Assembly: GCA_013239625.1 (NCBI GenBank)
Contig: MU054546.1
Span: 310,001 to 374,000, forward strand
Origin: Lama guanicoe
Lineage: Eukaryota
DNA length: 64,000 nucleotides
Reading direction: 5' to 3'
This document shows, piece after piece, positions 40,901 through 41,932 of the stretch. The first letter of the stretch is position 1. Every line of letters begins with the position of its first letter. The notes under the pieces are model-generated. The model did no database searches. It was not told the origin of the DNA and saw only the letters and a list, made by a program, of their open reading frames with translations. A program made the translations under genes and the position numbers.

Positions 40901-41882
40901 AAAGCCACATAAAACTTTCAATTTACAGAACACACAAGTTCTCTGTTTGTCTTACATAAAATTTATAATCAGATCTCTAATGTGCTTTAGGCTTTAAAAC
41001 CTTTCGAAATAGAGTGCTGTGGAACAAACTGTTAAAAAAACCCTGAAAAAACCAGGTTCCAATTCAGGCATCATTTGTTGAGGAACCATGACGTGGCCAC
41101 GCACTGTGCTAAGTGAATTCATGGATGTTAACTAGTTAACCTCATGACAACTCTGAAGTTGGTGTTCGGTATAACAAGTGGTCACATAGTTCTAAGAACT
41201 CATTTATTACGGAAATGAACTGTAAGACTCAGTAATATGTGGCTTTGGGTCAAACAACTTCACTCCATGAAGGACATGAGGGACAGCTGTCCTGTGCATC
41301 AGCAGGAGCCCCCAGGGATTGCAAGGAAGGACCCAGCTCCCCTGACACTACACAGTATATACTATGTTCCTACAAATCCCTGATGGCTCTCTGGGAAGGG
41401 AAGGCACAGACTAGAATGAAGAGTGCTCTAAAGAAGCCATCTCCGGCTGGCGACCTAGGCCCAGAGCCCACAGCCCCAGTCCAATGTCAAAGGAACCTCC
41501 TCCTCTGGTGCCTGCCCTCAGCCTCCCTCGCCCCAGGACCACTGCAGCTCTGGGCTCCTCCTTGGCCTCAGGAGGATTTGGGGTTCCTTTCCAAGGCTTT
41601 ACTGTTCCCTTCTGCTTTGTTCCTCTGCTAAAGCACTGACTCAGGTTTCAGAAGTGTCTGGCACATAGTGACATCATCCTAGGACCTCAACTACTTCTCT
41701 GTGCTTCATGGGAAGCCTTATTTTCTACCCAGGTGCACTGCTCTTTCCTACAGGGTGAGGTGTATGTGCAGAATGGCCCAGACTTCTAGAGACTACGATA
41801 CCATCTCACAAACCCCACAGATGCCTAGGTCCATATTAGGGCATGGCCTACCCACCAAACCCCTTTACCTGCCAAAAGATAC
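37938..41882 (-). other. U12-type (minor spliceosome) GT-AG intron of DCAF4
   Basis: 5' site GTATCTTTT (consensus RTATCCTTT); branch site TCCTTAAC at 37956-37949 followed by only 11 nt to the exon; short pyrimidine tract. Confidence 0.88.
40300..40718. mobile_element. Tigger1-like internally deleted DNA transposon
   Basis: TIRs caggcatacct / aggtacgcctg, TA at the left flank; N gap 40411-40571 inside. Confidence 0.82.
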
Positions 41883-41932
41883 AGAATGTGGGAATCCAGA
41901 TGATTCAGTGAGGCCCAGCACACAGCATTCAC
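41883..41932 (-). CDS. DCAF4: DCAF4 exon 8 (VNAVCWASLNHLDSHIL)
   Basis: caccag| acceptor; U12-type donor |GTATCTTTT; the 50-nt length is required for frame with exon 9. Confidence 0.92.

Follow-up and report, generated by a model that had tools for sequence, protein, structure and literature searches.

What does a second, U2-type donor do 14 nt inside the minor (U12-type) intron of DCAF4, a gene that sits on the minus strand of the window, the 64,000-nt stretch of Lama guanicoe DNA analysed here? The first-pass annotation had proposed that the minor spliceosome makes full-length DCAF4, that the major spliceosome alone makes either an isoform lacking part of the propeller or an NMD substrate, and that CRL4-DCAF4 output could thus track minor-spliceosome activity. 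DCAF4 is reportedly a CRL4 substrate receptor, linked in colorectal cancer cells to the degradation of ST7.

The exon numbers used here (Table 1) agree with the alpaca DCAF4 model placed on the window, whose first exon maps to 59187-59137 (minus strand), and the residues of window exon 2 are shared with alpaca at 30 of 30 positions and with wild camel at 29 of 30. In the standard protein, the Pfam DCAF4 propeller occupies residues 142-494. A search for retrocopies with exon 10 matched, in the animal's own genome, the DCAF4 gene itself alone. Outside intron 8, the tandem acceptors of exon 10 add or remove one alanine, with paired isoforms across mammals, including human; intron 10 (36343-36468, minus strand, 126 nt) is free of in-frame stops within an open frame of 36682-36182, so that its retention in frame is possible; and the starts of exons 4 and 5 have several nearby alternative AGs (45821-45832 and 46789-46798, minus strand).

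Intron 8 qualifies as U12-type by its donor, by a branch point near its 3' end and by an orthologous U12 intron. The donor GTATCTTT at 41882 departs from the GTATCCTT consensus by a single change, T at +6, and the branch A of TCCTTAAC lies 12-13 nt from the intron end. Published tables assign a minor intron to both human and mouse DCAF4, the donors being GTATCCTTT and GTATCCTTC (PMC6717393, PMC6800510). The human intron (chr14:72947192-72951797) and that of mouse Dcaf4 have their position, phase and branch point in common with the window intron, and the human one has a ZRSR2 site at its 3' end. Among tabulated minor donors, T at +6 is rare, with 48 versus 959 string counts (about 5%, a few of the former falling in the branch-point column of the minor-intron table), and the scores shown for such donors are about 66-84, versus mostly above 88 for the others. 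A further 20 U12-donor-like 8-mers occur in the window, on both strands.

Table 1. Features of DCAF4 around intron 8, in window coordinates
Feature	Position	Strand	Remark
DCAF4 exon 8, 50 nt	41883..41932	-	Phase 2 end at the U12 donor
U12-type 5' splice site GTATCTTT	41875..41882	-	+6 T variant; +6 C in human and mouse
14-nt exon 8 extension (YLLA) via the U2 donor	41869..41882	-	Peptide in 12 annotated camelid/whale proteins
U2-type donor CAG/GTAAAG	41863..41871	-	7/9 consensus positions; GT absent in human
U12-type GT-AG intron 8, 3945 nt	37938..41882	-	Ortholog of the annotated human/mouse DCAF4 minor intron
Nested U2-type intron from donor 41868 to acceptor 37978 (3891 nt)	37978..41868	-	Use suggested by annotated isoforms
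U2 branch-point-like TACTAAT	37995..38001	-	About 20 nt upstream of the nested acceptor (CTAAT at -22)
Pyrimidine tract and CAG of the nested acceptor	37978..37997	-	Pyrimidine fraction 0.76, 24-nt AG-free zone
40-nt exon 9 extension, nested route	37938..37977	-	Holds the U12 branch point; peptide as in alpaca X7 and wild camel X1
U12 branch point TCCTTAAC	37949..37956	-	Motif identical in human and mouse
DCAF4 exon 9, 80 nt	37858..37937	-	End of strand B, B-C loop and strand C of one blade
Exon 10 tandem (NAGNAG) acceptors 36570/36567	36567..36573	-	Target of the proposed exon-9 bypass

What the first-pass annotation had read from the letters around the U2 donor is borne out. The donor CAG/GTAAAG at 41869/41868 competes positionally with the U12 donor and lengthens exon 8 to 64 nt, ending in phase 1 with ...SHILYLLA. 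Joined to exon 9, this longer exon shifts the frame to a stop at 36501, 417 nt upstream of the last junction, and the transcript is a predicted NMD target; joined to exon 10, it keeps the frame and yields a product 66 nt (22 aa) shorter (250 versus 272 aa to the stop). Scored against the general U2 donor consensus, the +14 donor matches at 7 of 9 positions, equally good as the seven real U2 donors of the gene (6-8 of 9). Donors of this quality occur 26 times among 14,671 intronic positions, which gives, on this single-gene count, a chance of about 5% for such a donor within 30 nt of a given donor; as one in three would be in frame, about a dozen are expected by chance over some 700 minor introns. 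Consequently, the +14 donor and its in-frame skip, taken alone, are within chance. A second GT at +23 (41860-41861, minus strand) is weak (4/9).

The +14 donor has, however, a partner that was absent from the first-pass annotation, namely a U2 acceptor at 37978/37977, located 40 nt upstream of the U12 acceptor. Joining 41869 to 37977 adds 14 + 40 = 54 nt in frame, a gain of 18 residues, and the resulting peptide is identical to that of alpaca X7 (XP_072819469.1) and wild camel X1 (XP_032338199.1). The neighbouring AGs at 37975 and 37972 were rejected as the nested acceptor, as both frameshift. The signals of the acceptor at 37978, among them a TACTAAT that resembles the textbook branch-point consensus, are comparable to those of the real DCAF4 acceptors. 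On a crude estimate (0.05 x 0.024 x 1/3), with thresholds set after the fact, chance would produce the complete in-frame set roughly 0.3 times in 700 introns. The definition of a nested twintron (PMC3564746) asks for a separate U2 donor and acceptor within a U12 intron, and for splicing of both introns, by different spliceosomes; DCAF4 intron 8 contains both U2 sites. From the signals we infer that the nested and outer introns are cut by different spliceosomes, and the weakened U12 donor together with the complete nested set suggests that in some transcripts, a minority, the major spliceosome likely excises the slightly shorter inner intron. This spliceosome would therefore not be confined to a partial propeller or an NMD substrate: the bypass of exon 9 would lose a propeller strand, but the join at 37977, which is the annotated one in the closest species, would give a full propeller plus 18 aa.

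The annotated isoforms of other mammals indicate how these sites may be used. We classified 355 proteins, one of them an off-frame translation, in a non-random sample (the 120 listed of 315 matches, further matches and at most 15 members from each of 20 clusters) in which out-of-frame isoforms are mostly invisible. The U12 junction is present in 303 and the end of exon 8 missing from 32; four are other cases (three elephant/manatee normal-junction variants and a draft model from rhino). The last 16, all predicted gene models, continue into the intron. Exon 8 ends at +14 in 12 of the 355, split into five nested and seven bypass forms. The nested forms come from alpaca and wild camel (+18 aa) and from Rice's whale (X1, X4 and X5, +17 aa), and in all three species the U12 form is annotated as well, again as predicted models. 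The shorter orthologous isoforms anticipated by the first-pass annotation do exist as annotated models, with the exon-10 join annotated in toothed whales only (7/355): pygmy sperm whale X3 and X4, orca X5, beluga X4, bottlenose dolphin X3 and X5, and a narwhal draft. The remaining four intron-reading proteins are ferret X2 and sperm whale, fin whale and pangolin models running on into the intron. All 16 have YL at this position, which implies T at +6, and all are laurasiatherian, with no primate or rodent among them. A search with the insert region matched 3 of 55 candidates, restricted to cluster representatives, all of them previously found. The human 474-aa protein, 21 aa below 495, had been a candidate for the 22-aa-shorter bypass and was rejected; it is an N-terminal variant with exon 9 intact. 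Separately, in rhino X3 exon 8 is skipped and exon 7 is spliced to the nested acceptor region (37938-37977, minus strand); by this use from exon 7, the acceptor looks older than the +14 donor.

Such models could also arise if gene predictors shun U12 donors and take the next GT, in which case the +14 site would be an annotation artefact or negligible noise, hardly used in this animal. The narwhal and fin whale drafts, labelled "hypothetical", likewise run beyond the U12 donor, the six bypass models printed in full all have frameshifted C-termini (a trait of some normal-junction models too), alpaca X7 additionally skips exon 12, and the strength of the +14 donor is itself within chance. We nevertheless consider this explanation unlikely, as 11 RefSeq models from seven species carry the +14 forms beside the U12 form of the same species. 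Alternative models at NCBI are generally built from aligned transcripts, and the draft models (narwhal, fin whale, pangolin and rhino) were excluded as evidence of use. As far as annotated models go, the +14 donor thus appears to be used in camelids and whales.

Conservation was judged from published tables and from back-reading of proteins because a search for orthologous DNA from host contamination in metagenomes gave 0 matches. In the donor listing of PMC8280824, the human sequence reads ...GGCAG and then A at +15, so that human has no GT there and lacks the competing U2 donor; the window and human thus differ twice, with T versus C at +6 and GT versus A at +15. Ferret X2 reads YLLAD, from which A at +15 can be deduced; its join to exon 10 breaks the frame and would start at a putative +22 donor, the weak second GT described above. 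In sperm whale, fin whale and pangolin the reading is YLLAG, which would fit G at +15. Back-reading of the peptides puts the nested acceptor 37 nt upstream of the U12 acceptor in whale, 40 nt in camelids and 41 nt in rhino; the insert is 17 or 18 aa long and its sequence also varies. The +14 donor persists from camelids to whales, and the conservation of GGCAGGTAA beyond the U12 donor, which the first-pass annotation had put forward as a check, breaks down outside these two groups. A regulatory U12/U2 switch requires conservation across mammals, and the DCAF4 +14 donor does not show it. Four distant homologs (P0362, P0365, P0367 and P0368) read ...LYP at the junction position, which fits read-through of a consensus U12 donor with C at +6 and suggests that the intron is old and the +6 T derived.

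Human DCAF4 nevertheless informs on the intron itself, whose dependence on the minor spliceosome is shown in that species. In the PMC8034651 supplement sheets, control values for retention of the intron are 0-0.15, against 0.35-0.44 with U4atac and 0.25-0.65 with U6atac morpholinos, and DCAF4 is absent from all the other sheets except that for expression. The DCAF4 entries for TALS cells show retention only, with delta PSI of 0.015 and 0.16 (PMC6800510), and the entry for ZRSR2 mutants shows retention with a delta of 0.12, the alternative-splicing columns for ZRSR2 and CENATAC being empty (PMC8280824). Likewise, DCAF4 is absent from the alternative-splicing table for normal human and mouse tissues, in which a control gene is present (PMC6717393); the short supplements of PMC11722475 (16,209 characters) contain no DCAF4 entry and are uninformative. 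Since human lacks the +14 site, these retention data say nothing on camelids. Of the proposal that DCAF4 tracks minor-spliceosome activity, one part stands, namely that DCAF4 mRNA needs minor splicing, which holds for every gene with a minor intron.

A conserved donor that bypasses exon 9 or feeds NMD, making CRL4-DCAF4 output a read-out of the minor spliceosome, is therefore very improbable; as a conserved mechanism it is already largely refuted. The reading frames do hold, annotated models of five toothed whales carry the bypass, and by losing strand C it would offer a loss-of-function route; against this stand the missing human donor, the lack of alternative splicing of human DCAF4 in the CENATAC, ZRSR2, TALS, morpholino and normal-tissue tables, a ferret equivalent that is out of frame, and an annotated camelid partner that is the nested acceptor and not exon 10.

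The consequences of each route for the protein were explored with a fold model of standard DCAF4 from a diverse alignment of 58 sequences (pLDDT 81, pTM 0.77); an earlier fold on a mammal-only alignment was discarded at a mean pLDDT of 50. A solved structure of the DCAF4 propeller was not found among the 60 sequence matches listed of 188, or among the fold matches listed. In the model, the strands of the affected blade span residues 226-233, 241-247, 255-260 and 278-281, and the U12 junction falls within codon 244. The bypass deletes the core strand C (255-260), whose positions are filled in 31 to 38 of the 38 distant homologs, and on this model the bypass isoform likely misfolds the propeller. 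The isoform with 18 additional residues is predicted to keep the propeller fold, since YLLA completes strand 241-247 and the insert comes to lie in the following B-C loop. In WD40 geometry this loop is on the substrate side.

One alternative is selection, namely that camelids and whales keep the nested intron as a back-up because its product is a folded DCAF4 whose loop is altered, which would make DCAF4 output independent of the minor spliceosome or change its substrates. The frame is preserved in two lineages though the lengths differ, the complete nested set is improbable by chance, YLLA would fill strand B with the insert within a loop, and the Pfam propeller score drops just from 711 to 687 bits in the nested form. 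On the other side, the insert differs in sequence and length, and what is conserved at its core is the U12 branch point; in toothed whales the +14 donor goes to exon 10; none of the pig, ruminant, horse, bat, primate and rodent proteins listed has the isoform; and the protein database shows in-frame cases alone. Taken together, we regard a selected back-up as rather improbable.

The reading we favour, and hold to be probable at moderate confidence, is that of a lineage-limited U2-inside-U12 twintron next to a weakened U12 donor, likely leaky and unselected, and not a conserved sensor. As human lacks the key site, a lineage-limited leak is a likelier description than a conserved control switch. 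Under this scheme, U11/U12 would be slow on the +6 T donor, allowing U1 to bind the +14 site, and the U1-bound donor would pair with the nearest good U2 acceptor. The partner would accordingly differ by lineage, being 37977 in camelids (+18 aa), a like site in the baleen whale (+17 aa) and exon 10 in toothed whales (-22 aa), and these differences would reflect chance substitutions rather than selection. Two observations speak against a mere leak: a nested set that is improbable by chance and in frame in both camelids and the baleen whale hints at selection, and the +14 donor has been kept from camelids through to whales.

Nested twintrons of the U2-in-U12 kind are described for Drosophila prospero and for human HNRNPLL, ZNF207 and C1orf112 (PMC8329584, PMC3564746). 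Like prospero, DCAF4 holds a U2 donor and acceptor inside a U12 intron; the U2 route gives a product that is in frame and 29 aa longer in prospero, and would give one that is 18 aa longer in DCAF4. Unlike the human twintrons, for which conservation throughout vertebrates is described, its nested donor is absent in human, and Table 1 of PMC3564746, which lists 18 human twintrons, does not include DCAF4. The arrangement also resembles the switches of SRSF10, NCBP2 and CENATAC, as described in PMC8329584, in which adjacent U12 and U2 donors compete, one being productive and the other truncating or NMD-bound. However, the sites of these switches are conserved and react to changes in minor-spliceosome activity, whereas the DCAF4 site is not conserved and the human data show retention only. 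A likeness is also found in the cryptic U2 events classed as CAT4, CAT6 and CAT7, with an intronic cryptic donor often combined with a cryptic acceptor or the skipping of a downstream exon (PMC6717393, PMC8329584). According to PMC6717393, minor introns that are spliced alternatively most often combine a cryptic 5' with a cryptic 3' site. Most cryptic-site events end in premature stops (about 22% are translatable, and four lengthened the protein), in contrast to the nested DCAF4 form, which is in frame.

The minor intron of DCAF4 and its dependence on minor splicing are already known; our literature search, which covered open papers, found no paper on alternative splicing of this intron. If it is a leak, the site joins the numerous U2 sites that compete with minor introns and is of little importance, and the camelid and whale finding is not transferable to human DCAF4. 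As an example it has modest value: a path from U12 to U2 introns by way of twintrons has been proposed without a clear case (PMC3564746). In a further reading, possible though on the doubtful side, the minor intron of camelid and whale DCAF4 is now at this twintron stage, on its way to becoming a major intron. In DCAF4, a change from C to T at +6 would have weakened the U12 donor, a U2 donor would have arisen at +14 opposite a ready U2 acceptor, and the major spliceosome would make a folded DCAF4 that is 18 residues longer. Different living mammals seem to show different stages, and human, which lacks the site, can serve as the control. If the conversion is true, DCAF4 would be buffered against failure of the minor spliceosome rather than a sensor of it, and the species from human through ferret, rhino and camel to whales would offer a natural test of minor-intron loss by the twintron route.
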